A stretch of DNA of 64,000 bases from a virus (IMGVR_UViG_3300043467_001216); one strand, 5' to 3'. Counted from the stretch's first letter, positions 32,232 to 64,000 are shown. Made by a program: numbers and translations. The notes: generated by a model from the letters alone, not told the origin.

Positions 32232-32235
32232 ATTT

Positions 32236-32796: not shown

Positions 32797-32798
32797 AA

Positions 32799-33666: not shown

Positions 33667-33693
33667 TTATTTATTTATTTATTTATTTATTTA
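33666..33693. repeat. (TTTA)7 microsatellite
   Basis: Seven perfect tetramers abutting the dioxygenase start codon. Confidence 0.9.
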
Positions 33694-33714
33694 TTCCTTT
33701 ATATTAAAACAACA

Positions 33715-34839: not shown

Positions 34840-34856
34840 ATATTTTAAATTTAAAC

Positions 34857-34890
34857 AAATCCGTTTTCGATAAAAAATTCAGTATTCATT
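34857..34890. repeat. 34-bp direct repeat, copy 2: orphan 5' end of the dioxygenase gene (MNTEFFIENGFV*)
   Basis: Identical to 33633-33666. Confidence 0.95.
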
Positions 34891-34895
34891 ATATT

Positions 34896-35606: not shown

Positions 35607-36231
35607 CAATGTATATTTTAAATTTAGACAAATCCGGATATGGTAATTCCAAATCCTCATTATGTTTAGGTGTACCATCAAAGTTGTAAAATTGTTTCAT
35701 AAGTAAAACTCCTCTGGCCGCTAACTCAGGCATCATATAAAAATTCCAACCAATCATGTCAAAATGGTCATCGTGATAAGAACATTCTCTTCTCCCACTA
35801 TATCTAGCCCGTTTAAACCACAAATAAGCGTCATAATCATCAGTTAGTATTGCACCACCCTTTGATAATTTAAAGTGTTTATATGGACCCGTGAATGAAA
35901 TACACATATGGGTATTTGGTTTATACATATTATGGGTAAAGGATAATGCCGAATCCCAAACTTTTGTAGGACTTAATTGATACGAACCCTTTAATGTTTT
36001 ACCTTCAACTTGTTTAAATTTAACCTTACCACCAGCGTGAATTATCTCACAAGGAACTGAAGGATAAGTACGACAAGGTATTTCAATTTCAAGACCTTTT
36101 ACTTTTTCATACATTAACGATAAAAACAAGGCGTTACTTTGATTATCAACTGTAACAACATAAGGTGCTCCCGTGTAGTCGGAAAGGTCTTTTTCAAAAT
36201 CTTCGGTTATTTTATAAATCCCGTTTGACAT
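35599..36231 (-). CDS. DegT/DnrJ/EryC1/StrS-family sugar aminotransferase (compact)
   Basis: NALFLSL, TYPSVP..IIHAGG, WDSA, SFTGPYKHFKLSKGGAILTDD, GWNFYM. Confidence 0.85.
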   Translation of the reverse strand: MSNGIYKITEDFEKDLSDYTGAPYVVTVDNQSNALFLSLMYEKVKGLEIEIPCRTYPSVPCEIIHAGGKVKFKQVEGKTLKGSYQLSPTKVWDSALSFTHNMYKPNTHMCISFTGPYKHFKLSKGGAILTDDYDAYLWFKRARYSGRRECSYHDDHFDMIGWNFYMMPELAARGVLLMKQFYNFDGTPKHNEDLELPYPDLSKFKIYIGE

Positions 36232-46375: not shown

Positions 46376-47542
46376 ATGAGTAATACAATAGTAATATCAA
46401 GTGTTAATTATGACGGTGAGTCAGCTAATATATTATTTAAACCCGACAATGATAATGTCACTATAAATTTAAATAAAGAATTCGGTCAAATTATATTACC
46501 ATATACGTTTGACCCCTCAACTTTAATACCCCCTCGTGATGTATTTGGAACGTACACAATATTAGTTGATAATTCAAAATGTCCTAATTTTATGAACGTT
46601 GTTAGACCAACACCAACACAAACGCCAACTAAAACAATTACACCTACAGTAACTAAAACCCCTACTAAAACTCCAACTCCAACTATAACACCCAACCCTT
46701 GTTTAATTTCTCCAACACCAACATCAACAGTAACTCCAACAGTAACCCCAACATTAACTAAAACCCCAACTCCAACATTAACTAAAACCCCAACTCCAAC
46801 ATTAACACCGTTATCTTGTTTTCAAAAATATAATAATTGGTGGAATACACATTCATTTTTATCATATTCATCAATTACTAATTATTATACTTATTCATAC
46901 TTACCTAGCTCAACGTTTATTAGTACAGGAGGATTATCAATGTTTAATGTCGGTAATACCATTTTATTTAGTAACCCATTTCCAAAAGTCTATGGAACTG
47001 TTGGTACTGATTTTTTAATTAGTAAACCAAATATTTGGCCTCAAATAACATTAATTAATTTAGGTACAACCATTAGTCCACATTCAATATCGGAAATTGG
47101 TTTACCGTCGATTATTTCAGGTAATGACCCAACTTATGGACCATACACTATTACTCGTGAGGTTACATTAACCGAAGGAACTTATAGTTGTAATAACATC
47201 ACTGGTAGTTGGTATCGTTATAGTAATATCGGTGTTAACCCTATATTTTTATCAGGACAAACACCTTGCCCATCAATCGAATATGTTTGGTTTACTGTTG
47301 AATCAACCGATTGGAATACAGTCATTTCTAGTGTTTCCGATAATAGAGGTAGCGTATCAAATCCAAATCAATTAGATTCGACCGTAACAGTCATAGGTGA
47401 AAATGGATTTATTGGTATGATATTATTATCAAAATATAACCCATCGTTACCGTCGACAATAATACCTAATAATCAAATTACAACATTTTTACAAAACACA
47501 ATATGTGAAATGTTTAACAGTGTTAATTGTGTTGATTTTTAA
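46376..47542 (+). CDS. N-module, Thr/Pro stalk and C-terminal beta-rich domain
   Basis: N-terminus homologous to that of 44983; TP repeat 46607-46810. Confidence 0.7.
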   Translation: MSNTIVISSVNYDGESANILFKPDNDNVTINLNKEFGQIILPYTFDPSTLIPPRDVFGTYTILVDNSKCPNFMNVVRPTPTQTPTKTITPTVTKTPTKTPTPTITPNPCLISPTPTSTVTPTVTPTLTKTPTPTLTKTPTPTLTPLSCFQKYNNWWNTHSFLSYSSITNYYTYSYLPSSTFISTGGLSMFNVGNTILFSNPFPKVYGTVGTDFLISKPNIWPQITLINLGTTISPHSISEIGLPSIISGNDPTYGPYTITREVTLTEGTYSCNNITGSWYRYSNIGVNPIFLSGQTPCPSIEYVWFTVESTDWNTVISSVSDNRGSVSNPNQLDSTVTVIGENGFIGMILLSKYNPSLPSTIIPNNQITTFLQNTICEMFNSVNCVDF

Positions 47543-47623
47543 TATTTAAGAATTTTAAAAAAAACTTATTATTTTAATAATAAAAATGTTAAAATATCAA
47601 CTTTTTAGGTATTTATTTTTTAA

Positions 47624-50600
47624 ATGAGTGTAATATATATAACAAGTTTAACAGGTCATTCACCTTACGACATAACAATCTGTGATTTAACTAGAACATA
47701 CTGTGAAGTTGTCTTAACAGGTGTCGTTTCGGTCCCCCCTGTATTGGAGATACCCGCGTTTGAACCTATTGAAGGTGAACCGTTATCTGAAGTCTTAGTT
47801 ATTGTTACCGATTCAACAGGTTGTGAAGAATTCTTATACTTATCTTGTGAACCAACACCAACCCCAACACCTACTAATACGGTCACACCAACAGTAACCC
47901 CAACACCTAATAAGTGTAAGTGTTACACAATTATTAACCCAACGAATGACCCATTACCATTTCAAATAACTTTATGTGATGGTAATACATTAATTACTGA
48001 TATTGACGGGGATACCACATTATATTATTGTGGTTATGATGTTGTCGTTGAGTCACCTGTGTATATTTTAACACCTAAATTTGGTTGTGATGTCAACGGA
48101 TGCCCTGAACCATACCCAACGTCAACTCCAACACCAACAGTCACACCTACTTTACCACCAGTTATTGGTAACTTTAGAAGTTGTTGTGATTCATCTTATG
48201 AATTTAGAATATCAAACATTCCTGGGTCGTACTCACCATTAAATGGTACTTATTTTATTTCAAATACAAACTTTGAAGGATGTGCTCAATATATTGGGAG
48301 TACAACCTCACCGATAATATTCCAACACCAATTTATGGGTCAATCAACTAATTGTTATGATTGTCAAATTGAAAACCCATCTTATTTGTGTTTAACCCCA
48401 ACCCCAACCCCGACAGTTACCACCACTAATACTGTCACCCCGACGGTGACTCCAACAAATACCGAAACACCAACTCAAACACCTACAAACACTAATACTC
48501 AAACACCAACTGTTACCGAAACACCAACTCAAACACCAACTGTTACCGAAACACCAACTCAAACGCCAACTGTTACCGAAACACCAACTCAAACTGTAAC
48601 CCCAACTGTTACCGAAACACCAACGCAAACTATAACACAAACTGTTACACCAACAAATACAATAACAAGAACACAAACACCGACTAACACAAGAACTCAA
48701 ACACCGACTAACACAAGAACTCAAACACCAACAAATACTAACACACAAACCAAAACACAAACTCCAACTAACACTAACACACAAACTCCAACTAATACTG
48801 AAACCCCTACTAACACACCAACCAACACAAATACACCAACAAATACTATTACACCTACTAACACAAGAACACAAACACAAACGCCAACTAATACTATAAC
48901 TCAAACACAAACCCCGACAAATACTAGAACACAAACACCAACAAATACAAGAACACAAACACCAACAAACACAATAACATCAACACAAACACCAACAAAC
49001 ACAATAACATCAACCAACACACCAACTAATACAAGAACACAAACTCCAACAAAAACACAAACACAAACACCAACAAATACTCGTACACAAACACCAACAA
49101 ACACAATAACACAAACACCAACAAATACTCGTACACAAACACCAACTAATACTCGTACACAAACACCTACAAAAACACAAACACCAACTAATACTATAAC
49201 TCAAACAAAGACACAAACACCAACTAATACTATAACTCAAACACAAACACCTACTAATACTATCACACAAACCCCAACAAATACTAACACACAGACACCG
49301 ACTAACACACAGACCCCAACTAATACTAACACACAGACCCCAACTAACACTATTACTCAAACTCCAACTAATACTATCACACAAACAAACACTCAAACAC
49401 AGACAAGAACTCAAACCCCAACAAATACTAATACGAGTACACCAACAAACACAATAACACAAACACAGACAAGAACTCAAACCCCAACAAATACAAGAAC
49501 TCAAACCCCAACAAATACAATAACAAGAACACAAACAAGAACACAAACCCCAACAAATACGCCAACAAAAACACAAACACCCACAGTAACCATAACACCA
49601 ACTAACACAAGAACTCAAACACAAACACCAACAAATACTATAACCCAAACACCAACAAATACCACAACAAACACCCCAACCACAACTCAAACACCAACAC
49701 CAACAACACCATATGATTTATTTATCGTTGAAAGTTGTTGTAATAATACAACAGGGTTTATGGAATTACCAATTAGTTTCACACCAACTTTTTTCCCAAG
49801 TTTTTCATCATTTGTTGTTTCAGATACTAATGGATTTTGTTATAAAATCATATCATCAGGTCCTGGTGGTGAAACACCTGACTTATTTTGGAATGGTAAT
49901 TATAACGACGTATACGTTGACACGGGTAACGGATGTGTGAATTGTATTTTAGTTCACCCTTGTCCTACCGCAACACCTACACCAACAAGAACACAAACAC
50001 CGACTAACACTAAAACACCGACTAACACTAAAACACCAACCCAAACCCCAACTAACACTAAAACCCAAACACAAACACCAACTAACACAAGAACACAAAC
50101 ACCAACAAATACTAGAACACAGACTCCAACCCCAACATTGCCACCATTAATTTGTTTTAGATACACAAATAACATAACATCAGGTCAAATTCTGTACAAT
50201 ACAACTGCCGGAGGTTTTATCTATGGTAAACCTTACTATGGTATTATAGATTCATTTACCGTTATTGGTTATGTTTGGTTTGACCCTACATTACAAATTT
50301 GGAAATATTCAGAATCAATTGGTAGTGGGATAATATTCAGTATTTTAAATTTAGATAGTGAATATCCGGTAAGTAATTCTTTACATAATTGGACAGGTTC
50401 ATTTGACGGTAATTCTATGTTATCCTCCAACATTGGTATTTGTTCCACACCAACACCAACACCAACAAATACTAAAACACCAACTAATACTCAAACACAA
50501 ACCCCAACTAATACTCAAACACAAACCCCAACTAACACACCAACTAACACACAAACTAACACACAAACTAACACTCCCACAAATACTATCACTCAAACAC

Positions 50601-53600
50601 CAACCAAAACTGTAACACCGACTAACACTCGTACACAAACACCGACTAACACTCGTACACAAACATCAACTAACACATCAACACCAACCAAAACAGTCAC
50701 ACCAACAAATACTATCACATCAACACCAACTAACACCCAAACACCAACAAACACAATAACACAAACACCAACTAACACTGTAACACAAACTAACACATCA
50801 ACACCAACTAACACTATTACCCAAACCCCAACAAATACCATTACCCAAACCCCAACAAATACTATCACTCAGACACCTACACAAACTAAAACCCAAACAC
50901 AGACAAGAACACAAACTCCAACTAACACTGTTACACCAACAAATACTAGAACACAGACTCCAACCAACACAATTACACAGACACCAACCAAAACTCAGAC
51001 ACAGACTCCAACAAATACTAGAACACAGACTCCAACAAATACTAGAACACAGACACCAACCAACACAATTACACAGACACCAACCAACACAATTACACAA
51101 ACTCAAACAATTACTCAAACACCAACTAACACTCAAACTCAGACTCCAACAAACACACCAACCAACACAAATACGTCAACGGTAACAAGAACTTCAAATG
51201 TTACCCAAACACCAACCAAAAGTCCAGGTGCAACACCCGCCTCAACTCAAACCCAAACACCAACAAATACGATAACCCCAACAAATACGATAACCCCAAC
51301 AAATACACCGACAAGAACTGTTACACCAACAAATACTAGAACTCAAACACCAACAAATACTAGAACTCAAACACCAACAAATACTATTACTCAAACACCA
51401 ACAAATACTAGAACACAAACACCAACAAATACTAGAACACAAACACCAACAAACACAATCACACAAACCCCAACAAACACAATCACACAAACACCGACTA
51501 ACACAGTTACACCAACAAACACAGTTACACCAACAAACACAATTACACAAACCCCAACAAATACTAACACTCAAACACCAACCAAAACTTCCACACCAAC
51601 AAACACAATTACTTCAACACAAACACAAACAAGAACTCAAACCCCAACTAACACTAATACGCCAACAAATACTCGTACACAAACACCAACTAACACAATT
51701 ACACAAACACCAACAAGAACACAAACACCAACAAATACAATTACACAAACCCCAACAAAAACCATTACTCAAACACCTACTAATACAATAACACAAACAC
51801 AAACTCCTACTAACACTATTACACAAACACCTACTAATACAAGAACACAAACACCAACAAAAACAGTTACCCCAACAAAAACAGTTACCCCAACTAATAC
51901 AATAACCCAAACACCGACTAACACAAGAACTCAAACAAACACACCAACACAAACCCCAACTAACACAAGAACTCAAACAAACACACCAACACCTACAACG
52001 ACACAAACCCCAACCCCAACAAATGCTTGTTATCCAGGAGCTGATTATATTGTTTTGGTTTATAATTTCCCTCCGGGGTCAGGTTTTGGTTTAAATACTG
52101 AGACAACATTAATAAACCCATTAACCCAAGGTCCTTTAGGTTATTGTGTTACAGGTTCTCAACCTTCAGGTATTTATGGTGGTCCATATTTATTTTGGGG
52201 TGGTGATAATACTAACTCACAAGGTTCTGAGTCAATTTATGTTAGCGTTACTTCTTTAAAAACAGCATACCCCACACTATCATCAATACAATTAACCTCT
52301 AAAGCAAATTGGTTAACATCATTCACTACAGGAGCGTTAAACATTACTATGTACGCTTATTCTGGAGGTACTATGATTAGTAACACCAATTTTGGTTTCA
52401 TAAATGTTGGTGGTGTTTTATTAGCTCAAAGAAATTTCCCACAATCAACAATCACAGGTTTAAACTGTCCTAATAATCAGTGCGTTGGAACATTCACATA
52501 TGACATTTCCAGCGGATGTTTTAGTAAAATACCTTGTATTGAACCAACGTCAACCCCTACCCAAACATCAACTCCAACTAACACTCAAACACAAACTAAC
52601 ACACAAACTAATACCCCAACTAATACCACAACTCAAACCCAAACCCCAACAAACACAAGAACACAAACCCAAACCCCAACAAACACAAGAACACAAACAC
52701 AAACACCGACTAACACAAGAACACAAACACCGACTAACACAAGAACACAAACACCAACTAAAACTGTAACGCCAACAAATACTATAACTAATACTAGTAC
52801 ACCAACAAATACTATCACACAAACACCTACTAATACAAAAACCCCAACTAATACTATAACTAAAACTAACACTAGTACACCAACAAATACTATTACTCAA
52901 ACCCCAACAAACACTAACACACAAACCCCAACAAACACAAGAACACAAACACAAACCCCAACAAATACAAGAACACAAACACAAACCCCAACAAATACAA
53001 GAACACAAACCCCAACAAATACAAGAACACAAACCCCAACAAATACAAGAACACAAACTTCAACTAATACACCTACACAAACTAAAACCCAAACACAAAC
53101 TCCAACAACACCTTATTCAATCTTTAAAGTTTCAAGTTGTTGTTTTTCATCTCCGGTTACTTACTATATGTCGTTACCAACTATATTTCAACCTATCATA
53201 GGACCTCCTGGTGGTAATAGTTACTCATATTCAGTTGTTGACACAACCGGTCAGTGTTTTGTTGTTAATGAATTAATAACTTCACCATTACCCCCTAACA
53301 AATTTTGGAATGGTAACTACGGTCAAGTGTATGAGGGTATTAACACCAACCCTTGTATTCAATGTAACACTTTCAATCCGTGTCCAACACCAACTCCAAC
53401 ACCAACAGTAACATCAACACCTACTAACACTGTTACCTCAACAGTAACATCAACACCTACTAACACTGTTACAAATACACCAACTAGAACTGTCACACCA
53501 ACTAGAACTATAACACCAACTAGAACACAAACACCAACAAGAACACAAACACCAACTAACACTATAACACAAACACAAACACCAACAAATACAATAACAA

Positions 53601-56600
53601 GGACAAAAACACCTACTAACACAAATACCCCGACAAGAACTCAAACACCAACCAATACCCCAACAAGAACAGTCACACCAACAAATACAATAACAAGGAC
53701 AAAAACACCTACTAACACAAATACCCCGACAAGAACTCAAACACCAACCAATACCCCAACAAGAACAGTCACACCAACAAGAACAGTCACACCAACAAAC
53801 ACAATAACAAGAACAGTTACACCAACCAATACAATAACAAGGACCCAAACACCAACTAACACAAGAACACAAACGCCAACAAACACAATTACAAGAACAC
53901 AAACGCCAACAAATACAATTACAAGAACTAAAACTCCAACAAATACATCAACACCATCACCAACACCACCAATAGAATGTCATTGTTTTAACGCCACAAA
54001 TACACCTTCAGGTATAATAATACCGTCTTTAGGTAACGCCTCACCTTACCCAATAACGTTTAACGTATCTGGTTTAGATTCACCTGTAACTAGAATTGAA
54101 GTTAGAATTAGTGGTTACTCACACGCAGACTCTAGTGATGTCGCAATGATTTTAAAATCACCAAACGGTAACACCGCTTTGTTAACAGGTAGACAAGGAA
54201 CATCAATCCAACCTGTTAATAATGTTAATACAATTTTAACTGACTATTCACCAACATTATGGGATGGTTATAGTTCAGGTACTTACACTAACGACACTTA
54301 CGTGTATAAATCAATTGCGTGGAACACCTCAGGTTTACCTGATTATACCGCAACTCAAAATGGTAATAGTTTAACAACATTTATCGGAACCTCAGCTGCT
54401 AACGCAAATGGTACTTGGGAATTATATATTCAAGATTTTGGTATAAATGGGGGTGGTAATATTTTAGGTATCATTATATGTATTTGTGATTATACTATCC
54501 TACCATCTCAAACCCCAACTCAAACCCCAACACCAACTAATACCATTACAAGAACTCAAACACCAACAAATACAATTACAAGAACTCAAACTCCAACAAA
54601 TACAATTACAAGGACTCAAACGCCAACAAATACAATTACAAGAACTCAAACGCCAACAAATACTTCAACACCAACTAACACACCAACAAGAACGGTTACA
54701 CCAACTAATACAATTACAAGAACTCAAACCCCAACAAATACAAGAACTCAAACCCCAACAAATACACCAACAAGAACTCAAACCCCAACAAATACTCGTA
54801 CCCAAACTCCAACAAGAACACAAACCCCAACAAACACAATAACAAGAACACAAACACAAACTCCAACAAGAACACAAACCCCAACAAACACAATAACAAG
54901 AACACAAACTCCAACAATTACACAACCACCATTAATTTGTTTCACAGTTTCAACAGGTTTTGTAACTTGGACTTCTAACGTAAGTTCTTTAGGATTTTTT
55001 AATGGTTACCCTTATTATCCAATTTATGACTCAAATTCAATTTTAATAGGGTATGTTTACCTCTCACCAGGTGCGGAGGAATGGTTTTTCTCCTCATTAT
55101 TAAACGGTGGTGAAACCTATTCAGTTCTTACAGGTGGTATCGGAACACCACAATACCCAATAAATAACACTCCTTTTTTATGGACTGTTGAGGGGGGTAT
55201 TTATTATATTACTCAGTCAACATTAGGTGTTTGTCCGACACCAACACCAACACCTACAAATACCACAACACCTACAAATACCACAACTAAAACCCAAACA
55301 CCAACAAGAACTCAAACCCGAACCCAAACACCAACAAGAACCCAAACCCAAACACCAACAAGAACCCAAACCCAAACACCAACAACCCCATATTCATTAT
55401 TTCAAATTCAAAGTTGTTGTAATTCATCATTACATTTAATGTCATTACCAACAATTTACACACCATATTATGACAACCAACAATTTTTAACAATAACTTG
55501 GTCAGTTATTGCAACCGATGGTCTTTGTTATAAAATACTTGGAGTGTCAACTGGCACACCAAATAAGATATGGAATAACGCCACACCAACACAAAATCTA
55601 CCTTGGGCTCCTGACCCTTGTACATTATGTGTACCATCAAATGTTTGTCCAACATTAACACCAACACAAACACCAACACAAACACCAACTAAAACCCCAA
55701 CACCAACAAATACAATAACAAGAACTCAAACCCCAACAAATACAATAACAAGAACTCAAACCCCAACAAGAACGGTTACACCAACAAATACAATAACAAG
55801 AACTCAAACCCCAAGTGTAACAAAAACCCCAACAAACACAATAACAAGAACTCAAACACCAACAAGAACGGTTACACCAACTAACACAATAACAAGAACT
55901 CAAACACCAACCCCAACAAAAACACCTACAAGAACACAAACCCCAAGTGTAACAAAAACCCCAACAAACACAATAACAAGAACACAAACAAAAACCCCAA
56001 CTAGAACCCAAACACCAACAAACACAAGAACACAAACGCCAACTAGAACTCAAACACAAACCCCAACAACACCATACACATTATTCAACGTTATTAGTTG
56101 TTGTGATTTGGTAACTCTTCACAAAATGTTACTACCAACAATTTACACACCAAGTCAATTCCCGTATTTTACTTATGTAGTTAAAGATACATTAGGACAA
56201 TGTTATCAAATTTTTGAATCAACGACAGGTGTTGCAAATAAAATATGGAATGGTGCACAACCCGCTTATGACCCAATTGGTGAACAATGCGGTATCTGTT
56301 TACAAACAAATCCTTGTCCGACACAAACACCAACACAGACAAGAACACAAACCCCAACAAAAACACCTACAAGAACACAAACCCCAAGTGTGACAAAAAC
56401 ACCTACACAAACGCCAAGTGTGACAAAAACCGCAACAAATACACCAAGTGTAACAAAAACACCTACAAGAACACAAACACCAACAAAAACGCTAACTCAA
56501 ACACCAACAAAAACACCAGTACCTCGTCTATGTTCTATGAGTGGTTATGTTTATGAAATATCTTGTTCTTCATTATATTGTGTTGTACCTTGTTGTAGTT

Positions 56601-59011
56601 TAAATCGTGTTTATCCTGAGTCAAATTGTGTTTTACCTTCAACCTGTAATGACCCATCATATATGGTCAGTATACCAAATATTGATATAAACTTTTTAGA
56701 TGACAGTTTCTTTCAGATTACTACCTCAGACCTTGAATGTTTTGATTGTGATAGTAATTGGACTGACGTTGATGAGAACATCGCCATTAACAGAAATGAA
56801 TTTTTACAAAAGTATCTTCAAAATTTAGATTATAGATATAATGGTTGGACTACAGATGTTAACTCATTAACTTCTTATTACCAATTTTTTGGTAGTAATA
56901 GTTCCAAATTTTCCAGAACTAAACTTAGATTAGTTAATTATAAGTGGTATAGACCGTTAAATTATTATGAATCTTGGACCACACCAACTTTTTGTACAAC
57001 ATCACTATCAACAATATTTGGACCAATAACAGGTTTTACTTATTTACCACCAATTAACAACATATCATTAGCACCAACACCTAGTGTTAATGGTCGTTTA
57101 ATTGTAACAACAGGAGCAACACAATCAACTTATTTTTGGAATCCAACAACTAATACTTGGACTGACATTAACAATACTAGTTGTGTTGCACAAAGTATAA
57201 ACCAATTATTACTTGTTATGAACCAAATTAGGAATATATCAAGTAGTAAAAAAAGCACATTATTATTAGGAAATTCCGTTTTTACCAAAATAGGATTATA
57301 TTTACCAGCATTTCAATTTTTTAAATATAGAAATTATACATTACCATCAGGTCCATTAAGTTTAAGTGAGACCGAAAACATTGTTACAGAACCAATAATT
57401 GAACAAATAACCGAACCATTACAAATAAGTTGTTTAGCCAATAGTTATGTTATGGTATTACCTGAATCATTACCAAGCAATACGGTTGTTAAAGATAATA
57501 ATGGTTTATGTTATAGAACAATACAAGAAAACCCGATAAATAGCCCTTACATAGGACCAATGTTATATCAAAGTGGTTCTACAACATTTGTTGATTGTCA
57601 AAACTGTAGTAACTCAATTACAGTTCAAATATTAGCACAAACTGATTTACCTTTATACGCCAATTGTGACATAGTTACCTCAACAAGTATGGTATATCGT
57701 GTTAATAACGGACCTTGGGTTACTTTATCTTCAGTAGTTGACGCTACCGGTACGACATACACAGTCTTAAATTCTATAACAGTTGGTGTAGGTGTTACTA
57801 TTGATGTCTATTTTCCAGGAATCAAATGGGGTGTCGGATATTTATCAGGTGATTATACATCAAGATGTGATAACCAATATTACACATATTCAGTTTCTAG
57901 CTTAGCTAATGGTGTGATATATTTTAATTTAAAAAGTCAGGTAACAGTACTACCTGTACCGCCATTTATTCAATATCAATGTGGATTTGAACCTTGCCCC
58001 TCATTTACAATTCCCAATCCTTGGAGATGGACATGGTATGATTCATTTACCGAAGATAATATCTTCACAATGTCAGAATCACCTGGTGTTTGGAATGGTA
58101 GAAGATATTATGAAGTACCTAATAATAATTATACTTCAACAGTTTCTTATGTTTGGTATGATACCCCAACAACAAATTGGTATAATTCATCTGTGTTAGG
58201 TTCAGGTACTTTATATTCTTATTTAGAGAGTTCATCGCCTACACAACCAATCAGTGGACCATTTAATCAATGGGTTGATTTATCAAGTGGACCATATATT
58301 ATGATTAGTTCAGAACCTCAATACCCAATTGAAGTGTCGGGTCTTGTAGTATGGTTAGATGCTGGTTCTGATTTATCTTGGCCTAGTTTGGGAACTGCGT
58401 GGAACGATATTACGGATAATAATAATAACTCAACATTTTACCAATCATTAGTACCAACAAATGCCGCAACGGTTTTTTCATCAGATAAAATGGGTAATTT
58501 TAGTTTTAATGGTAGTAATCAAAAATTCGCAATTCCTAACACATCAACATTATCAGCAATTACTAACACAGTATCAGTTGAGGTTTGGTTGAAACCAACA
58601 TTATTTGCCAATCGAGAAATTTTCAGTAAAGGTAGTAATGATGGGATAAGAATGAGAATTGACCCAACAGGTCACTTATGGATGTTGGGAGCAAATGCAC
58701 CTGGAATTGGTTTTGGCACATACACAAGTACAGGAACAACAACATTAAACCAATGGAATCAAGTTGTTGGTGTATGGACATCAACAGGTTTCTACACATA
58801 TATTAACGGTGTTGATTCAGGATATGATTTAAACTTGTCATTATTAATACAAGACTATAACTTACCACTTGATATTGGTTGTTTTACAGGTGACAATTCT
58901 AACTTCCACTATCAAGGTTATATGTCAATATTTAGAATATATAATAGAGCGTTAACTTCCGATGAGGTATTGTCTAATTTTAACAGTCAAAAAGATAGAT
59001 TTGGTTTATAA
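47624..59011 (+). CDS. Giant 3,795-aa mucin-like Thr/Pro-repeat protein with interspersed Cys-rich modules, a proprotein-convertase P-like domain and a C-terminal LamG
   Basis: Single open frame with about 1,800 aa of T-x-T-x repeats. Six SCC..C..CxxC modules; P-domain-like [27 protein letters not shown] (about 53975-54490); Lam[32 protein letters not shown]. Confidence 0.85.
48395..56520 (+). repeat. Degenerate 18/24-nt coding tandem repeats (TPTNTI / TQTPTNTR) in about nine blocks
   Basis: A/C-rich, G-poor acaccaacaaatac units; largest blocks about 48395-49710 and 50446-52022. Confidence 0.95.
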
Positions 59012-59063
59012 TTAAATCTTTATTTATATAATAATAAACTTATTTTTTAAAAAAAAATGAAGT

Positions 59064-60311
59064 ATGAAAATTTTTGTGCAAATTGCATCGTATAGAGACC
59101 CTGAATTGGAGAACACAATTAAAAGCATGATTGAGAATGCTAAAAAACCTAACAATCTTAGAATTGGTGTTTGTAGACAATACCACCCTGAAGATGGTTT
59201 TGATACCTTAAATGAATTTAGAAAAGATAAAAAATTTAGAATATTAGATGTTTTATATAACGAATCTAAAGGTGTTTGTTGGGCTAGAAATCAAGTACAA
59301 CAATTATATGGTGGTGAGGAATACACACTTCAGATAGATTCACATATGAGATTTGAAAAAAATTGGGATGATGAATTTATTAAAATGGTTAAACAATTAC
59401 AGAAAAAAGGATTTAAAAAACCTTTATTAACGGGGTATGTATCATCATTTAACCCTGAAAATGACCCGGCTGAAAGAATTAAAGAACCTTGGAGAATGGT
59501 GTTTGACCGTTTTATCCCCGAAGGTGCGGTATTCTTTTTACCTGAAACAATACCAGGTTGGGAACAATTAAAAGAACCTGTAACATCAAGATTTTACTCA
59601 GCTCACTTTGCCTTTACTGTAGGTCAATTTAGTACTGAGGTACAACACGACCCTGAATTTTATTTTCACGGAGAAGAGATTTCAATCGCCGCTAGAGCTT
59701 ATACTCACGGATATGATTTGTTCCACCCACATAAAACATTGATTTGGCACGAATACACAAGAAAAGGTAGAACAAAACAATGGGATGATGATAAAGAATG
59801 GGTAATGAGAAATAATGTGTCACATAGTAAAAACAGAAAATTGTTTGGTATGGATGGCGAATTATCTGATGTTGATTTTGGTATTTACGGTTTTGGTACT
59901 GAGAGAACACTTAAAGAATATGAAATTTACTCAGGTTTAAGATTTTCAAGACGTGCGGTTCAACAATACACGTTAGATAAAAACTACCCACCAAATCCAT
60001 TTATATTTGAAACCGAAGAGGAATGGGAAGATAGTTTTGCTACAATATTTAAACATTGTATTGATGTTGGTTATGACTCAGTACCTGAAACAGATTATGA
60101 ATTTTGGGTAGTTGCTTTCCACGATGAAAATGATGAAACAATTCATAGACAAGATGCTGATATTAACGAAATTAATCGTATGAAAAATGACCCTGACGGA
60201 TATTGTAAAGTATGGAGAGAATTTCAAACAACACATAAACCAAAGTATTGGGTTGTTTGGCCGTACTCGACATCTAAAGGATGGGGTGATAGATTAACAG
60301 GTAGTTTATAA
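59064..60311 (+). CDS. GT60-like polypeptide/hydroxyproline alpha-GlcNAc-transferase (Skp1 Gnt1 / 'GlcNAc' family)
   Basis: IFVQIASYRDPEL, GVCWAR, YTLQIDSHMRF..NWD, FHGEEISIAARAYTHGYDLFHP...WHEY. Confidence 0.85.
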   Translation: MKIFVQIASYRDPELENTIKSMIENAKKPNNLRIGVCRQYHPEDGFDTLNEFRKDKKFRILDVLYNESKGVCWARNQVQQLYGGEEYTLQIDSHMRFEKNWDDEFIKMVKQLQKKGFKKPLLTGYVSSFNPENDPAERIKEPWRMVFDRFIPEGAVFFLPETIPGWEQLKEPVTSRFYSAHFAFTVGQFSTEVQHDPEFYFHGEEISIAARAYTHGYDLFHPHKTLIWHEYTRKGRTKQWDDDKEWVMRNNVSHSKNRKLFGMDGELSDVDFGIYGFGTERTLKEYEIYSGLRFSRRAVQQYTLDKNYPPNPFIFETEEEWEDSFATIFKHCIDVGYDSVPETDYEFWVVAFHDENDETIHRQDADINEINRMKNDPDGYCKVWREFQTTHKPKYWVVWPYSTSKGWGDRLTGSL

Positions 60312-60325
60312 AAATATTAAATAAA

Positions 60326-61105
60326 GTGAATGTTATAGCATCAAAAATATTTGGAGGTCTAGGTAACACAATGTTTCAAATAGCAACAGGATATTCAAAA
60401 TCATTAGATGAAAATTCTGATTTTATTGTTGATATTACGGAACTTTATAATAATCATCACCCGATATCCAAATATGTTAACAATATCTTCCAAAGAATAA
60501 AATTATCATATAACAAAATACATTATGATGTATATAATGTTCCACATTTTCATTATTGTGAATTACCTAATTTTGATAGAAACATTAAATTATCAGGATA
60601 TTTCCAAAGTGATAAATATTTTAAGAAAAACCGAGAAAAAATATTAGAGATTTTCGAGTGTAATAACGAAATTAAAGAAAAATTGTTAATTAAATATAAT
60701 GATATTTTAAAAACTAAAACTTGTTCAGTTCATATTCGAAGAGGTGATTATCTTCATTTAAATAATTACCACCCTGTTTTATCTTTTGATTTTTATGAAG
60801 AATCTTATAATATTATTGGTGAGGATTCGACATATCTTATATTTTCAGATGATATTGAATTTTGTAAAACCAACTTTGACTTCATTAAAAATAAAATTTA
60901 TATTGAAGGTTTAGAAGATTATGAAGAATTATACTTAATGTCATTTTGTGATAACAATGTAATTGCTAATAGTAGTTTTAGTTGGTGGGGTGCTTGGTTA
61001 AATAAAAAAGAAAATATCGTTATCTCCCCCCGTAAATGGTTTGGTCCGTCTTATAGTTCATACATAACAGACGACCTTTATCCTGATAATTGGTTAATAA
61101 TATAA
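60326..61105 (+). CDS. GT11 alpha-1,2-fucosyltransferase
   Basis: GGLGNTMFQ, GYFQSDKYF, VHIRRGDY, IFSDDI, IANSSFSWWGAWL. Confidence 0.92.
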   Translation: MNVIASKIFGGLGNTMFQIATGYSKSLDENSDFIVDITELYNNHHPISKYVNNIFQRIKLSYNKIHYDVYNVPHFHYCELPNFDRNIKLSGYFQSDKYFKKNREKILEIFECNNEIKEKLLIKYNDILKTKTCSVHIRRGDYLHLNNYHPVLSFDFYEESYNIIGEDSTYLIFSDDIEFCKTNFDFIKNKIYIEGLEDYEELYLMSFCDNNVIANSSFSWWGAWLNKKENIVISPRKWFGPSYSSYITDDLYPDNWLII

Positions 61106-61118
61106 AAACACACATAAT

Positions 61119-61853
61119 ATGAACTTAAATGAAATACCAAAATTTGTCCTAAACTTAGAAAAAAGAACCGATAGATTAGAACATATTAAACAGGAAATGT
61201 CGTACATTGGGTGGGACTATGAATTATTTAAAGCGATTGACACAGGGTGTCATGTAGGATGTACATTATCTCATGTTGCCATTATTGATTTAGCGATTGA
61301 AAGAGATTATGAATACGTTATGGTAATTGAAGATGATTGCTCATTTTTACCTAACGCTAAATCATTTATAAAACAATTAAATGTTGTTTTAGAAAATACC
61401 GAATTTGGGATTCTAAATTTATCCCCAACACATAATCGACCTGTTGAAATTAGTGTGAAAGATAAAATGTTAATAGATATTACTAATTATCCACCAAAAG
61501 AAGAAATACATAGGGGTGTTTATGCGACAAATATGATTGTATATCATAAATCAATATATGAGAATGTTAAGGGAATTATAACTGAAAATTTACATGGTTA
61601 TTACCCAATTGATGAGTATATTTATCTTAAAGTATTACCAATCAAACAAAGTTATTGCCCAATATTACCAATAGCCCCTCAAAAAAGTGATTTCTCAGAT
61701 GTTACCCAAGGTAATTATAGTAATTTTTATCTACAAACATACAATTGGAACTTATATTCCCCATATAAAATAGATTCAGAATTTTTAAATTACGAATCTA
61801 ATCAACAAATAAAAAAGAATAATATACATAAAGAATTTAATTATGTCAGTTAA
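61119..61853 (+). CDS. GT25-family glycosyltransferase
   Basis: VLNLEKRTDR, GCTLSH, VIEDD, PIDEY. Confidence 0.85.
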   Translation: MNLNEIPKFVLNLEKRTDRLEHIKQEMSYIGWDYELFKAIDTGCHVGCTLSHVAIIDLAIERDYEYVMVIEDDCSFLPNAKSFIKQLNVVLENTEFGILNLSPTHNRPVEISVKDKMLIDITNYPPKEEIHRGVYATNMIVYHKSIYENVKGIITENLHGYYPIDEYIYLKVLPIKQSYCPILPIAPQKSDFSDVTQGNYSNFYLQTYNWNLYSPYKIDSEFLNYESNQQIKKNNIHKEFNYVS

Positions 61854-62727
61854 AATTATAACATCAATTTATAGTGATTTATTTAGAACTAAATTTGGTG
61901 GTAGACCAAGTAGAGGTGGCCATTATAGATGGAGTTTATTATCATTATTAAAAATGTCTGATGCCGATTTCATTTGTTACACGTCGGAACGAGAAATTGA
62001 AGGATTAGAAACTTTTTTCTATGTTGAAAACAACGTAGATAGGGATAAATTAAAATTAGTAACATACGATTTAGAAAATCATTATTTTTTAGAATTATTT
62101 AAAAAATACAAAAACTATGATGCGTGTGATAAAAATGGTAGTGATAGATGTATCGAAATCCAATATATGAAATTTATATGGTTTAAAAACGAGGACATGT
62201 CATATGACCATTATTTTTGGTTTGATGCCGGTTTATCTCATTGTGGATTAATACCTAATAAACATTTATCAAAAACAGGAATTCATAATAGTCAATATTA
62301 TTCAAGTGATTTGTTTAATAATAACTTTTTAAGTAATTTAATATCTAAAAGTGAAGATAAATTCACTATTGTTAGTAAAGAAAACGACAGGAATTATTGG
62401 TCGGGTACTGTTAACCCAAAACATTTTATTAATGGTTATGATAGAAGTAGACACGTAATTGGTGGTTTTTTTGGTGGTAAAAAAGAGTTATGGGTTAATG
62501 TGTTAGAATTATTTGAAAAGTATGTTAATGAGGTAACCGAATCGGATAATTACCTATATCACGAAGAAGATATTATGACATTAATGTTTAGAAATCATCC
62601 TGACTTATTTTTAAGTTATGAGTTTGACACTTGGTGGCATGAAGATGAAAGAATTGCCGGTCTTGTGATGGATGAACACTTAAAAATTAATAAAAGTTTT
62701 TATAAAATTTTAGAAGAATTAAATTAA
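61843..62727 (+). CDS. HtrL/YibB-like glycosyltransferase
   Basis: MKFIW, YFWFDAGLSH, VIGGFFGG, HEEDIM. Confidence 0.65.
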   Translation: MSVKIITSIYSDLFRTKFGGRPSRGGHYRWSLLSLLKMSDADFICYTSEREIEGLETFFYVENNVDRDKLKLVTYDLENHYFLELFKKYKNYDACDKNGSDRCIEIQYMKFIWFKNEDMSYDHYFWFDAGLSHCGLIPNKHLSKTGIHNSQYYSSDLFNNNFLSNLISKSEDKFTIVSKENDRNYWSGTVNPKHFINGYDRSRHVIGGFFGGKKELWVNVLELFEKYVNEVTESDNYLYHEEDIMTLMFRNHPDLFLSYEFDTWWHEDERIAGLVMDEHLKINKSFYKILEELN

Positions 62728-62728
62728 T

Positions 62729-64000
62729 ATGGAAAAACTAACAATCGTTACAGGTTTATGGGATATTGGTAGAGAACATTTAAATAATGATTGGTCTCGT
62801 AACTATAAACATTATTTAGATAAACTATCTGATTTATTAAAGATTGATGTTAACTTAATCATTTTTGGTGATGAGAACCTTCAACAGTTTGTCAATAAAA
62901 ACAGAGAAAATAGTAACACTCAATTTATTTTACGTAACACAGATTGGTTTAAAAACAATGATTATTACGATAAAATACAAAAAATAAGAAATAACCCTGA
63001 GTGGTCTAATCAAGTAAGTTGGTTAAAAGATTCTACACAATCCAAATTAGAGTTATATAATCCATTGGTGATGAGTAAAATGTTTTTACTTAATGACGCC
63101 AGAATTATGGATAAATTTAATTCTGATTATTTATTTTGGTTAGATGCCGGTATCACTAATACAGTTCATCCTGGATATTTTACTCACGATAAAGTATTAG
63201 AAAAATTACCTAAGTATTTAAAAAAATTCACATTTGTTGCGTTTCCGTATGACGCTGAAACAGAAATTCACGGATTTAATTATTCTGAAATTAACAAATA
63301 CGCAGGGAACAAAGTTGAGATAGTTGGTAGAGGTGGTTTTTTCGGTGGTCATAAAGACACAATATCAAATATCAATGGTGTTTATTATTCATTATTAAAT
63401 GAAACATTAAATAATGATTTGATGGGTACTGAAGAAAGTTTATTTTCAATTCTATTGTATAAACACCCTGAATTAACAAGCTTTTTTGAAATTGAAAAAA
63501 ATGGTTTAATAGGTACGTTTTTTGAAAATCTAAAGAATGATAATTTAGAATTAAAACAAACAGTTCAAGTAATTTCTAACTTATCAAATAGTGTAACACC
63601 TTCAATATCACCAATTACATATCAAACTGTAGTTAATGATAAGGTTGGTTTATACGTTATCGGATTTAATAGTCCAAATCAATTACAAACATTAATTGAT
63701 TCTATGTTAGAGTATGATAAAGATTTTATTGACAAACCAAGAAAAATATTATTAGATAACTCAACTGATTTAACAACAACACCTATTTATAGTGAGTTGT
63801 GTTCTAAATATGGTTTTGAACACATTAAAAAAGATAATTTAGGAATCTGTGGTGGTAGACAATGGATTGCCGAACATTTTGAAAAATCTGATTTAGAATA
63901 TATGTTCTTTTTTGAAGATGATATGTTCTTCTACCCTAAAAAAGGTGAAGTGTGTAGAAACGGGTTTAATCGTATGGTTGATAACCTATATGAGAAATCA
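62729..64000 (+). CDS. HtrL/YibB-like GT fused to a GT2-like domain (partial, runs off the window; not in ORF track)
   Basis: MEKLTIVTGLWDIGR...YNPLVMSKMFLL...YLFWLDAG...RGGFFGG...GTEESLF, then LLDNST...NLGICGGRQ...FFEDD. Confidence 0.8.
   Translation, partial: MEKLTIVTGLWDIGREHLNNDWSRNYKHYLDKLSDLLKIDVNLIIFGDENLQQFVNKNRENSNTQFILRNTDWFKNNDYYDKIQKIRNNPEWSNQVSWLKDSTQSKLELYNPLVMSKMFLLNDARIMDKFNSDYLFWLDAGITNTVHPGYFTHDKVLEKLPKYLKKFTFVAFPYDAETEIHGFNYSEINKYAGNKVEIVGRGGFFGGHKDTISNINGVYYSLLNETLNNDLMGTEESLFSILLYKHPELTSFFEIEKNGLIGTFFENLKNDNLELKQTVQVISNLSNSVTPSISPITYQTVVNDKVGLYVIGFNSPNQLQTLIDSMLEYDKDFIDKPRKILLDNSTDLTTTPIYSELCSKYGFEHIKKDNLGICGGRQWIAEHFEKSDLEYMFFFEDDMFFYPKKGEVCRNGFNRMVDNLYEKS

Follow-up and report, generated by a model that had tools for sequence, protein, structure and literature searches.

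A giant Thr-rich protein and its neighbours

An uninterrupted open reading frame on the + strand (47624..59011) encodes a 3,795-aa beads-on-a-string protein in the window analysed here, a 64,000-nt stretch of viral DNA. Thr and Pro make up 29.3% (1,111 residues) and 10.6% (403 residues) of the protein, respectively, and its 11 Thr-rich tracts total 1,853 residues with 911 Thr (49%) and 267 Pro (14%), in agreement with the ∼1,800 repeat residues and ∼900 Thr given by a first-pass annotation of this DNA. The repeats, which that annotation described as Thr/Pro, are indeed Thr-rich and contain Pro but are strictly of the form (T-X)n, 97% of tract Thr having another Thr at i+2 and X including P (267), Q (195), N (182), R (94) and I (66). 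TRTQTPTN is the most frequent 8-mer in the tracts (45 copies) and PTVT, also said to occur, was counted 10 times.

The protein further contains conserved N-terminal Cys-containing domains (residues 1-256), an ∼85-aa Cys module in at least four copies (697-781, 1828-1915, 2588-2672 and 2817-2899), an ∼100-aa module in three copies (843-942, 2436-2534 and about 3473-3563), two unique globular inserts (1468-1641 and 2119-2294) and an 830-aa C-terminal region terminating in Laminin_G_3. The latter is the sole Pfam match; the Cys modules match nothing, no module matches a family of known location and no homology to the mucin domains VWD, C8, TIL, CK or SEA was detected with Pfam. The long Pro/Thr/Ser-rich tandem repeats characteristic of mucins are present, and 'mucin', the word used in that annotation, is an analogy and not a family membership because only Laminin_G_3 is found by Pfam and the Cys modules are unmatched. 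The giant reading frame is not an assembly artefact, as the identical downstream GT60 glycosyltransferase is encoded behind the 3,795-aa ORF in 13 contigs and behind an ORF of 3,827 aa in one more, the gene thus being seen again in at least 14 assemblies; the two forms differ solely by in-frame indels within tracts.

Three neighbouring + strand genes also encode tracts. A 1,073-aa modular protein (41739..44960), whose gene has an upstream TATTTAT, combines a Laminin_G_3 (ConA-like) domain (PF13385, E=2.7e-9) with a (T-X)n tract of 138 residues, at 672-809 in the form that starts with ATG. The adjacent 462-aa protein (44983..46371) has a C-terminal papain-like (C1) peptidase (PF00112, E=6e-6; phrog_16701 'peptidase', E=1e-49) connected to its N-terminal part by a 16-residue (T-X)n linker, and shares an N-terminal motif with a 388-aa protein of unknown family (46376..47542; phrog_15511, unknown function) that has two tracts, 62 residues together. 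At least 10 tract-bearing ORFs occur in the record, a 173.7-kb IMG/VR contig that is ∼59% complete, and five of the 10 flank the glycosyltransferase operon, on both sides. Sequence prediction detected no signal peptide or transmembrane segment in any of the proteins, whether operon enzymes or putative substrates such as the giant protein, and all are predicted to be soluble.

The replicon is a large, freshwater phage with a T4-type large terminase, TerL (PF03237, E=2.8e-13), and, by profile search, a gp20 portal (PF07230, E=1.7e-75) and a gp23-type capsid protein (PF07068, E=2.5e-73); a contractile sheath is matched by PF04984 and PF17482. Judged by these capsid, portal, terminase and sheath markers it is a T4-like (Straboviridae-type) myophage, and the source replicon is classed as a T4-like jumbo phage, the capsid protein of which is at most 39-42% identical to that of any cultured phage.

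The GT60 enzyme

The gene following the giant ORF (59064..60311, + strand) encodes a 415-aa glycosyltransferase, and its expected assignment to GT60 proved right in a profile search (PF11397, E=5.3e-70, 237 bits against a cut-off of 21; phrog_24687, E=1.9e-164). D92, H94, E205 (GEE motif) and H229 are invariant in 62 sequences sharing 36-96% identity. A DxH metal-binding motif, replacing DxD, together with a C-terminal His constitutes the GT27/GT60 signature (PMC7185993), and this DxH...H arrangement is found in the phage enzyme. In Foldseek searches with the AF2 model (pLDDT 95.8, pTM 0.91), PDB ranks 1 to ∼38 are all ppGalNAc-transferases (E 2.6e-10 to 1e-8), the matches including ppGalNAc-T1/2/4/10/12, PGANT9 and TgGalNAc-T3; the predicted structure is a GT-A fold closest to the GT27 polypeptide transferases. 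The enzyme is 75-95% identical across the 80 closest viral loci.

Protist GT60 enzymes modify Thr/Pro-rich repeats. To our knowledge, the family has no characterised member from bacteria or viruses, and acceptor and donor are extrapolated from the eukaryotic members. We propose that the phage GT60 is an initiating polypeptide Thr-O-glycosyltransferase. It resembles the protist enzymes (Dictyostelium Gnt1/Gnt2, Trypanosoma cruzi OGNT) in its PF11397 membership, DxH...H signature and GT-A fold near GT27, and the Thr or Hyp acceptors in Thr/Pro-rich repeats of those enzymes resemble the tracts next to the phage gene; Gnt1 is soluble, as predicted for the phage enzyme. The phage GT60 differs in belonging to a bacteriophage, with relatives in many bacteria, in having ∼100 extra C-terminal beta-rich residues and in being paired with a two-domain HtrL-like transferase, while no prolyl hydroxylase partner was seen.

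A variable cassette between conserved transferases

All five same-strand genes that had been reported directly after the giant gene, encoding GT60, GT11, GT25 and two HtrL-like proteins, were found. GT60 is followed on the + strand by a 259-aa GT11-family protein (60326..61105; PF01531, E=1.1e-22, 81 bits against a cut-off of 23.9) and a 244-aa GT25-family protein (61119..61853; PF01755, E=1.4e-15, 58 bits against 24). The next gene (61843..62727, + strand) encodes a 294-aa HtrL-like single-domain protein that has no Pfam match; hhalign gives 95.6% against the alignment of the last operon protein, HtrL571, the 294-aa protein being a paralogue of the N-terminal half of HtrL571, and its Atlas features point to HtrL_YibB clusters. 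HtrL571 itself (571 aa, + strand) starts at 62729, runs to the end of the window at 64000 and ends beyond it at 64444 (L006:820-2535). PF09612 matches residues 4-251 only (E about 5e-16 to 1.3e-15), whereas the model (pLDDT 88.8) contains two GT-A domains, residues 1-280 and 305-571, and the top Foldseek matches are two-domain glycosyltransferases, namely Mimivirus R699, LARGE1, LH3, K4CP and COLGALT1. HtrL571 scores 64 bits against the YibB equivalog NCBIfam TIGR02192, below the cut-off of 264.9, and YibB, an E. coli waa-locus protein, lacks the second GT-A domain; by these comparisons HtrL571 has an HtrL-like domain without being an orthologue of YibB.

GT60 and HtrL571 are conserved partners, present in 80/80 and 77/80 relatives, respectively; HtrL571 is also found in the Xanthomonas jumbo phage XacN1 and in phage RAS14 and adjoins GT60 in about 35/80 bacterial loci. 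Between the two genes, relatives contain 299 ORFs in 106 clusters, a cassette rich in GT25, GT10, GT2, GT34, PLOD-GT, GT7, methyltransferases, DegT, acetyltransferases and a carbamoyltransferase, with the 294-aa protein in 17/80. On gene content, the conserved GT60 and HtrL571 bracket a hypervariable glycan cassette, which is new here and is an architecture typical of glycan systems. GT11 is the family of alpha-1,2-fucosyltransferases. A GT11 homologue was detected in none of the 80 closest related viral loci and GT25 in eight. The Fuc-Gal-GlcNAc glycan put forward in the first-pass annotation is not upheld, being strain-specific at best given the absence of GT11 from the relatives and the hypervariability of the intervening genes; as the cassette varies among close relatives, the glycan would vary from strain to strain. 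A second large sugar-tailoring cluster is located at 25025-36231.

GT25, GT11 and HtrL_YibB are best known from LPS/O-antigen loci (Pfam descriptions), superinfection exclusion was suggested for cyanophage glycosyltransferase clusters, and a jumbo-phage review takes similar clusters as surface-polysaccharide modification (PMC7824862). These points, and the presence of the second cluster, favour a glycan assembled on a non-protein acceptor, either a small molecule or, in superinfection exclusion, the host's LPS, capsule or envelope polysaccharide. We regard this as improbable, since no enzyme of the operon has a transmembrane segment, no flippase, polymerase or polyprenyl-phosphate transferase (Wzx, Wzy and polyprenyl-phosphate families) is found among the leading cassette families, the GT60 family is known only with polypeptide acceptors, with fold neighbours that are all polypeptide transferases, and the virions of XacN1 display PAS-stained glycoprotein bands (PMC5852040).

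Association of Thr-rich tracts with GT60

Pro-containing (T-X)≥8 tracts within 10 kb were scored in the phage clade at GT60 loci of at least 15 kb. Tracts are near GT60 in 49/57 related loci compared to 4/27 capsid-gene-anchored loci of the same clade (Fisher p=3e-10), and near a second GT60 paralogue (40% identical) at another fibre locus in 45/58 (p=5e-8 against the same capsid loci), p-values that overstate independence because the counted loci are phylogenetically related. Matches to a (T-X)8 DNA pattern number 1,170 in the present record, 122 in XacN1 and three in RAS14, and 127, 81 and 122 in three sister-clade GT60-positive contigs, with none in one further GT60-positive contig, 54% complete; none were found in five GT60-negative T4-like/jumbo phages (1.9 Mb total). 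Tracts are thus present in 6/7 GT60-positive phage records and 0/5 GT60-negative ones. These comparisons support the predicted co-occurrence of GT60 with TP-repeat genes, but it is not universal: ∼25 sister-clade loci (GT60 60-68% identical) have no tract within 10 kb; one sister subclade has tracts elsewhere in the genome. The association is also directional. In an arbitrary set of 80 viral loci that carry (T-X)10 tracts, GT60 was present in the short flanks of only three. Since GT60 is missing from the vicinity of most Thr/Pro tracts of viral contigs, GT60 points to tracts, whereas tracts do not point to GT60.

The ORF preceding GT60 in relatives varies in length between 162 and 3,795 aa and in Thr content between 8% and 40%. 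The giant gene, presented in the first-pass annotation as GT60's own substrate, is adjacent and tract-rich, but with such variation upstream, and with the other tract ORFs of the record, it is by this genomic measure not the sole or obligate substrate of the system. We propose that the giant protein is the main O-glycosylation substrate and fibre.

XacN1 and bacterial relatives

XacN1, like Xoo-sp13 and Stenotrophomonas RAS14/CM1, has orthologues of GT60 and of the 294-aa and 571-aa proteins (in XacN1 47%, 28% (ORF332) and 41% identical, respectively). As in the present phage, (T-X)n tracts occur in several large proteins and a papain-family gene is close to one, ORF382 being two genes from tract-bearing ORF384; ORF174 and ORF180 bear tracts as well. 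XacN1 differs in its unrelated lineage, 50% GC genome, carbamoyltransferase-containing cassette and tracts that are far from the operon, 50-140 kb from GT60; its giant ORF325 (3,313 aa), near GT60, is not Thr-rich (8.9% T).

Its GT60/HtrL module is near DNA polymerase and RNase H, and the operon of the present T4-like phage adjoins DNA polymerase B, which counts against a role in protein glycosylation. Such positions would suit transferases that hypermodify phage DNA (hydroxymethyl-pyrimidine glycosylation, as in T-even and 5mYOX/TET systems), and the HtrL571 C-domain weakly matches a PHROG beta-glucosyl-HMC alpha-glucosyltransferase (E=6e-4). DNA as target is nevertheless very improbable. A thymidylate-synthase-like hydroxymethylase, TET/JBP and C5-methyltransferase (PF00303, PF12851, PF00145) were not found in the 173-kb record, which is 59% complete and was searched for PF12851 without a positive control, nor was the hydroxymethyl-pyrimidine pathway that defines phage DNA glycosylation systems. 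Thymidylate synthase of complete relatives passes the NCBIfam equivalog cut-offs (338 bits against 325, 315 against 108), XacN1 DNA was cut and mapped with BssHII, NaeI and SpeI and sequenced by PacBio (PMC5852040), and GT60 has a polypeptide-transferase fold and signature.

Three Burkholderiales genomes of 6-8 Mb each were searched with the tract pattern. A single (TP)46-57 tract accounts for 50/54, 54/54 and 43/55 matches in Ralstonia sp. 25C, an Achromobacter MAG and Paraburkholderia ferrariae, respectively, and forms the C-terminal tail of a VgrG spike 1-4 kb from GT60; the Ralstonia GT60 is inside a T6SS gene cluster, the only one of the three clusters annotated. In other phyla GT60 and HtrL adjoin small Thr/Pro-rich proteins or a PqqD domain that is fused to a Thr/Pro tail and lies 61 nt before GT60. 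Overall, no qualifying tract occurs within 10 kb of GT60 in 67/80 bacterial loci.

These data bear on whether GT60 and its partners glycosylate other proteins (capsid, tail or host), the tracts being plain flexible linkers found near the operon only because both occupy a hypervariable accessory/fibre region. The gene preceding GT60 varies greatly and in some relatives is short and Thr-poor, the sister subclade and XacN1 retain GT60/HtrL without adjacent tracts, and Thr/Pro linkers are common in viral contigs with no GT60 nearby. Still, we consider other targets unlikely given that characterised GT60/GT27 enzymes act on Thr/Pro-rich repeats (PMC7185993), that tracts occur in 6/7 GT60-positive records and in 0/5 controls, that the second paralogue is again among tract genes and that the sole long (TP)n tract of each of the three Burkholderiales genomes adjoins GT60.

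A putative cytoplasmic O-glycosylation system

The association of Thr-rich tracts with GT60 is seen at two phage loci and again in XacN1, which represents a second phage lineage, and in bacteria. Combined with the established gene content, families, catalytic signature, fold and conservation, and with the absence of membrane and lipid-carrier features, this suggests, with a probability of about 0.58, a phage-encoded cytoplasmic mucin-type O-glycosylation system, as first put forward from the annotation, though with neither the specific glycan nor the sole substrate named there. We infer its acceptor, sugars, virion location and function as follows. Late in infection the phage would produce soluble modular proteins in which (Thr-X)n tracts string globular modules together. 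The extreme case is the 3,795-aa protein, and the set as a whole includes Cys modules, ConA-like/LamG lectin domains and a papain-like peptidase. GT60, a sister of the animal ppGalNAc-transferases in a family with the protist polypeptide alpha-GlcNAc-transferases, would initiate the glycan on tract Thr hydroxyls by transfer from a UDP-sugar, the initial residue most likely being a HexNAc. Conserved HtrL571 and strain-variable transferases, here GT11, GT25 and the HtrL-like paralogue, would extend it. The resulting linker or fibre may be coated with glycans, stiffened and resistant to proteases, and is probably exposed on the virion with lectin-like domains at its far end.

Animal mucin-type O-glycosylation (GT27 acting on PTS repeats) is similar in that GT27 enzymes are the nearest solved folds (Foldseek E ∼1e-10), the candidate substrate is a very long Thr-rich repeat protein punctuated by Cys-containing modules, and initiation followed by variable extension is proposed. 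The phage system differs in its transferase family, in having no detected ricin-type lectin domain and no secretory pathway, in Cys modules that match no mucin domain and in strict T-X alternation with Pro at 29% of X. Mycobacteriophage capsid and tail-tube subunits are O-glycosylated at their C-termini (Freeman et al. 2023, cited in PMC12619734); there, too, phage-encoded transferases lie beside structural genes, and the virion glycans are O-linked, as proposed here, but neither a GT60 nor a giant repeat protein is known from that system. Giant viruses (Mimivirus fibril glycans, with R699/L230, and chlorovirus capsid glycans) encode host-independent cytoplasmic glycosylation of virion surface proteins, in clusters that, as here, vary between lineages, and R699 is the best structural match of HtrL571; they differ in eukaryotic hosts and in initiating enzymes and acceptors, and a GT60-initiated Thr-repeat system is not known from them. 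In bacterial and fungal cellulases, (PT)n-type linkers connect catalytic and binding modules, and their glycosylation extends the linker and shields it from proteases, a role we propose for the shorter phage tracts such as that of the 462-aa protein. Cellulases, however, are cellular enzymes that are secreted and receive their glycans from host pathways, and their linkers span tens, not hundreds, of residues.

A promoter-like motif

A + strand TATTTAT, said to precede both the giant gene and the GT60 gene, does occur at 47610..47616, 14 nt before the giant gene ATG, and at 59021..59027, 43 nt before the GT60 ATG. Across the whole window the motif shows only a modest excess, with 76 copies where 54.5 ± 8.5 are expected. 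Its positional signal is real, 43/146 genes having the motif within 60 nt upstream on the coding strand compared to ∼3.6 expected, with a peak at -21 to -30. Terminase (TerL), portal and tail sheath are among these genes. The giant gene and GT60 share this late-type promoter-like motif with structural genes, which favours the glycosylation system proposed above.

Results and Discussion

Structure and recurrence of the giant tract protein

A giant protein with roughly 1,800 Thr/Pro repeat residues, approximately 900 of them Thr, was described in the first-pass annotation, a description borne out by the 3,795-codon ORF at 47624-59011 (+), which is open throughout. Delimiting tracts by local Thr+Pro content yields 11 tracts totalling 1,853 residues, of which 911 are Thr and 267 Pro. 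Stretched out completely at 0.25–0.35 nm per residue, these tracts would reach roughly 460–650 nm. Alternation is strict, as 97% of tract Thr have Thr at i+2, the intervening residue being Pro, Gln, Asn, Arg or Ile; such tracts are denoted (T-X)n. Globular parts between the tracts comprise a ∼85-aa Cys-containing module in at least four copies, a ∼100-aa module in three copies and two unique inserts, and the 830-aa C-terminal region carries a Laminin_G_3 (ConA-like) domain at its end. This domain was the only Pfam match obtained with pieces of the protein, the whole protein matching no family, probably owing to the composition filter. A proprotein-convertase P-domain suspected at residues 2119-2294 was dropped, the Pfam match being absent. 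An Atlas look-up of the N-terminal 256 residues returned solely viral hypothetical clusters with low recognition.

An identical GT60 gene is found behind the 3,795-aa ORF on 13 independent contigs, and a fourteenth contig has it behind a 3,827-aa version; only in-frame indels inside tracts distinguish the longer form from the shorter, with no substitutions. Since the same arrangement recurs on independent contigs, the giant gene is not an assembly artefact. Across relatives, the ORF upstream of GT60 differs widely in length (162 to 3,795 aa) and in Thr content (8–40%), with a homologous N-terminal domain in 47 of the 80 closest viral loci. By analogy, a constant N-terminus combined with a variable distal part suggests the usual pattern of phage fibres.

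The phage's own record encodes 10 tract-bearing ORFs, five of which are distributed to either side of the glycosyltransferase operon and a further three of which belong to a second fibre-like locus. The latter (genome 148977-157233, beyond the window) encodes an 879-aa protein of which 79% is (T-X)n tract and whose N-terminal domain is shared with the giant protein (35% identity), and additionally a 375-aa tract protein. In relatives, the equivalent region contains a second GT60 paralogue (∼40% identical) beside a LamG-like protein.

Sequence and predicted fold of the transferases

The annotated series of GT60, GT11, GT25 and two HtrL-like genes downstream of the giant gene was confirmed by Pfam and hhalign. 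GT60 (59064-60311, +) matches the expected PF11397 profile with E=5e-70 and is directly followed, on the same strand as the giant gene, by GT11 and then GT25. The fourth gene encodes a 294-aa HtrL-like protein which has no Pfam match, its assignment coming from a 95.6% hhalign probability to the N-terminal domain of the last product, HtrL571, a 571-aa HtrL_YibB-domain protein whose gene extends 444 bases beyond the window. D92, H94, E205 and H229 of GT60 are invariant in an alignment of 62 relatives sharing 36–96% identity. DxH in place of DxD characterises GT27 and GT60, two sister families united by polypeptide Ser/Thr O-glycosylation (PMC7185993). At the sequence level, GT60 had no meaningful match among PDB chains (T7 RNA polymerase, E about 0.07), so a fold search was required. 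The AlphaFold model (pLDDT 95.8) has as its ∼38 best solved-structure matches exclusively polypeptide GalNAc-transferases.

The HtrL571 model consists of two GT-A domains separated by a disordered linker, with W137-x-D139 invariant in the first domain and E396-D397-D398 in the second. Its best structural matches are the two-domain proteins Mimivirus R699, LARGE1, collagen LH3, COLGALT1 and the chondroitin and heparosan polymerases, a likeness confined to the level of fold since TM-scores are low as a result of differing domain orientations. Neither a signal peptide nor a membrane segment was detected in any transferase or tract protein of the set analysed. That the operon modifies envelope glycans of the host is rather improbable, as the membrane segments expected of such a system are missing from the enzymes and lipid-carrier components from the leading families of the cassette.

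A promoter-like motif precedes the giant and GT60 genes

The motif TATTTAT, previously noted before both the giant gene and GT60, is indeed located 14 and 43 nt upstream, respectively (window 47610 and 59021). It occurs on the coding strand within 60 nt upstream of 43 of 146 genes, against ∼3.6 expected, lies 10–45 nt upstream of genes with a peak at -21 to -30, and also precedes the terminase, portal and sheath genes; further examples lie at window 6772 and 8579. Read on the opposite strand, TATTTAT corresponds to most of the T4 late-promoter TATAAATA. The motif may serve as a late promoter in this clade, and its distribution suggests that the giant gene and GT60 would be co-expressed with structural genes, presumably with late timing.

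A conserved pair brackets a hypervariable cassette

Conservation was scored in the 80 closest viral loci. GT60 is present in 80/80 and HtrL571 in 77/80, and a small tract-bearing gene follows HtrL571 in 70/80; the intervening genes of our strain are far rarer, the 294-aa gene being found in 17, GT25 in eight and GT11 in none. GT60-to-HtrL571 spacing varies from 2.2 to 11 kb among relatives, and over the 80 loci the interval contains 299 ORFs in 106 sequence clusters. Prominent among these ORFs are transferases of the GT25, GT10, GT2, GT34, PLOD-type and GT7 families, together with FkbM/CmcI methyltransferases, DegT aminotransferases, acetyltransferases, a UDP-GlcNAc 2-epimerase and a carbamoyltransferase. 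The layout is that of a glycan locus in which the initiation step is conserved and elaboration varies. The bracketing of a hypervariable glycan cassette by conserved GT60 and HtrL571 is a new observation. The Fuc-Gal-GlcNAc structure proposed earlier is rejected as a general glycan, GT11 and GT25 being poorly conserved, and could hold for this strain only.

A second glycan cluster occupies window 25025-36231 (-), with GT2 genes at 25025-25828, 28662-30176 (a double GT2) and 31527-32231, weak matches to GT2 at 34896-35681 and to GT1 at 25830-26891, two CmcI-type methyltransferases, a hexapeptide acetyltransferase, a PhyH dioxygenase and a short DegT fragment at 35599-36231. PhoH and a dUTPase/dCTP-deaminase-like gene are scattered within it. 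This cluster may supply or tailor sugars for the glycans of the operon.

Association of GT60 with tracts in phages

Pro-containing (T-X)≥8 tracts within 10 kb of an anchor gene were counted in this clade. Tracts are found near GT60 in 49 of 57 long loci and near the 40%-identical paralogue of the relatives' second fibre locus in 45 of 58, whereas only 4 of 27 capsid loci have one. Fisher tests against the capsid anchor give p = 3e-10 for GT60 and 5e-8 for the paralogue, values that are optimistic as the loci are related. In whole GT60-positive records, the (T-X)8 DNA pattern matches 1,170 times in our phage's own record, 122 times in XacN1 and three times in RAS14, and not once in any of five GT60-negative large phages (1.9 Mb). 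The original observation is correct and is more than chance.

The predicted co-occurrence held in one direction only. In a sister subclade (GT60 60–68% identical), no tract lies within 10 kb of GT60, and three of four searchable records contain 81–127 (T-X)8 pattern matches elsewhere in the record. A reverse (T-X)10 scan of IMG/VR detected GT60 in the short flanks of only 3 of 80 tract loci among the matches listed; tracts do not, therefore, predict GT60. Many of these matches are trivial microsatellites, and Thr/Pro tracts are common across viral contigs. The main competing explanation is that other proteins are glycosylated by the system and the tracts are bare linkers, a reading we consider doubtful. 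The evidence best supports a phage-encoded system of mucin-type O-glycosylation in which GT60 carries out initiation, with a probability of roughly 0.6. The mucin-type interpretation of the first-pass annotation is retained in this respect, its single substrate and fixed glycan being replaced. The substrate class would comprise all (T-X)n linkers rather than one gene, the glycan would be strain-variable and the core partner of GT60 would be the conserved two-domain HtrL-like transferase.

Two contigs were considered separately. L173, regarded initially as an independent phage lineage, was rejected as such, its capsid being 78% identical to that of our phage and the contig thus belonging to the same clade with a second GT60 paralogue. 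In L463 (MAG 'Planctomycetaceae TMED10', 35% GC), Cys-rich Thr/Pro-tract proteins lie on both sides of GT60, one of them with the C-terminal domain of a crAss-type muzzle protein (E=1e-19). L463 probably derives from a phage and reached the MAG through binning, and it has tail-located tract proteins beside GT60.

XacN1 and the DNA alternative

Xanthomonas phage XacN1 encodes counterparts of GT60 (47% identity), the 294-aa protein (28%) and HtrL571 (41%), and tracts are present in its ORF384 (2,823 aa), ORF174 and ORF180. XacN1 virions display at least two Schiff-stained glycoprotein bands, reported at the level of bands, which the authors credit to phage transferases (PMC5852040). As virion proteomics of this cultured relative are already deposited (PXD008065), the hypothesis is directly testable. 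The transferases might instead glycosylate phage DNA, which is highly improbable: no hydroxymethylase, TET or C5-methylase was detected in our 59%-complete record, complete relatives possess a bona fide thymidylate synthase and XacN1 DNA can be cut by restriction enzymes, its genome having been mapped with BssHII, NaeI and SpeI (PMC5852040).

We found no literature linking GT60 to phages. To our knowledge, few cases of phage-encoded virion-protein glycosylation exist, chiefly in mycobacteriophages together with the PAS-positive bands of XacN1, and we know of none tied to an enzyme family of defined peptide acceptor. Mucin-type pathways are thought to be limited to eukaryotes and some bacteria. 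If GT60 glycosylates the tracts, such a pathway would run in the bacterial cytoplasm under phage control, and the common, so far unexplained Thr/Pro tracts in large proteins of huge phages would have an explanation. The variable cassette would then represent a new axis of phage surface diversity affecting host range, immune recognition and particle stability, and the enzymes would be candidates for producing mucin-like glycoproteins in E. coli.

GT60 loci in bacteria

The genome collection contains at least 567 stretches with a GT60 relative, frequently adjoining an HtrL571 homologue; among the 80 best bacterial loci, 13 have a tract no more than 10 kb from GT60. Genome-wide (T-X)8 matches are concentrated inside one (TP)46-57 tract in Ralstonia sp. 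25C (50/54), an Achromobacter MAG (54/54) and Paraburkholderia ferrariae (43/55). In each case the tract forms the C-terminal tail of a VgrG spike (Phage_GPD, Phage_base_V, Gp5_trimer_C) encoded 1–4 kb from GT60. The gene order in Ralstonia sp. 25C (chromosome 1,082,153-1,103,367) is TssF-TssG-TssA-fimbrial/MrkD-like-GT60, converging on VgrG-TssM. L504, L518 and L465 are listed with this Ralstonia locus (L495) for GT60 within a type VI secretion (T6SS) context. These arrangements suggest that T6SS spikes are O-glycosylated in such bacteria, for which we know of no prior description.

The module is common to phages and bacteria, in the latter beside (TP)n-tailed T6SS spikes; if GT60 glycosylates the tracts, the same logic would cover these spikes. 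It is possible, if tentative, that GT60 and HtrL571 act together as a mucin-type O-glycosylation module of general occurrence in prokaryotes and viruses, which clothes (Thr-X)n/(TP)n tracts of extracellular injection machinery (phage fibres and the VgrG spikes of T6SS) in a dense brush of glycans. In this freshwater clade, the cassette would then confer a strain-specific 'glycotype', amounting to a viral glycocalyx that evolves under diversifying selection and would serve host adhesion or evasion of host or grazer recognition.

Elsewhere, a Gemmatimonadaceae locus encodes a PqqD domain with a fused Thr/Pro tail that ends 61 nt before GT60, and in three other phyla a small Thr/Pro-rich protein occurs at a fixed ∼2.5 kb upstream of the HtrL-GT60 pair. 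These small proteins (L472, L477, L499) have an RRxLLQxLG N-terminus and a Thr/Pro-rich tail. Peptide-modification contexts were also observed: a JGI contig (L216) has the order HtrL-GT60-PqqD-ScmC-GT60, and in GCA_012927205.1 (L215) GT60 occurs with a radical SAM protein, a C39-peptidase ABC exporter and a 62-aa ORF with a repeated CTCNNGSNY motif.

Among bacteria, the GT60-HtrL pairs closest to that of the phage come from MAGs of Bacteroidota (Saprospirales), with 60–70% and 45–59% identity (Saprospiraceae L446 and L443-L445; Lewinellaceae L448, a 611-kb contig of 62% GC). Mis-binned phage was considered for Bacteroidota MAG contigs with GT60 60–82% identical and rejected, as sufficiently long flanks share only the GT60-HtrL pair; from their flanks these contigs look bacterial. 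The pairs hint weakly at gene exchange with Bacteroidota or at a host among them.

The replicon and its clade

The window corresponds to bases 17091-81090 of a 173,656-bp IMG/VR viral record with an estimated completeness of 59%; complete genomes of relatives are ∼322 kb. The record encodes a T4-type large terminase, gp20 portal and gp23 capsid, with tail sheath, a gp13-like neck protein and family-B DNA polymerase downstream of the window. Capsid identity to any cultured phage is at most about 40%, the best being Flavobacterium phage immuto and Microcystis phage Mel-JY01. The clade is one of freshwater jumbo phages abundant in metagenomes: related capsids are present on at least 597 viral contigs and related GT60 genes on at least 397 from IMG/VR, and public data include over 7,000 related proteins. 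It might correspond to the published 'moraphage' lineage, for which four core GT orthogroups are described (PMC12619734).

Thymidylate synthase ORFs of two complete relatives (G003 and G002) are 423–434 aa with the family match in two stretches, suggesting an insertion of ∼40–100 residues, and in a third (G001) the match is spread over two frames (229 + 281 aa). Two fusions were also noted: a 454-aa protein combining a nucleotidyltransferase domain with an M23 peptidase (window 1089-2453), and a 519-aa protein beyond the window (L006:8738-10297, -) whose N-terminal half is a complete Fe/Mn superoxide dismutase.
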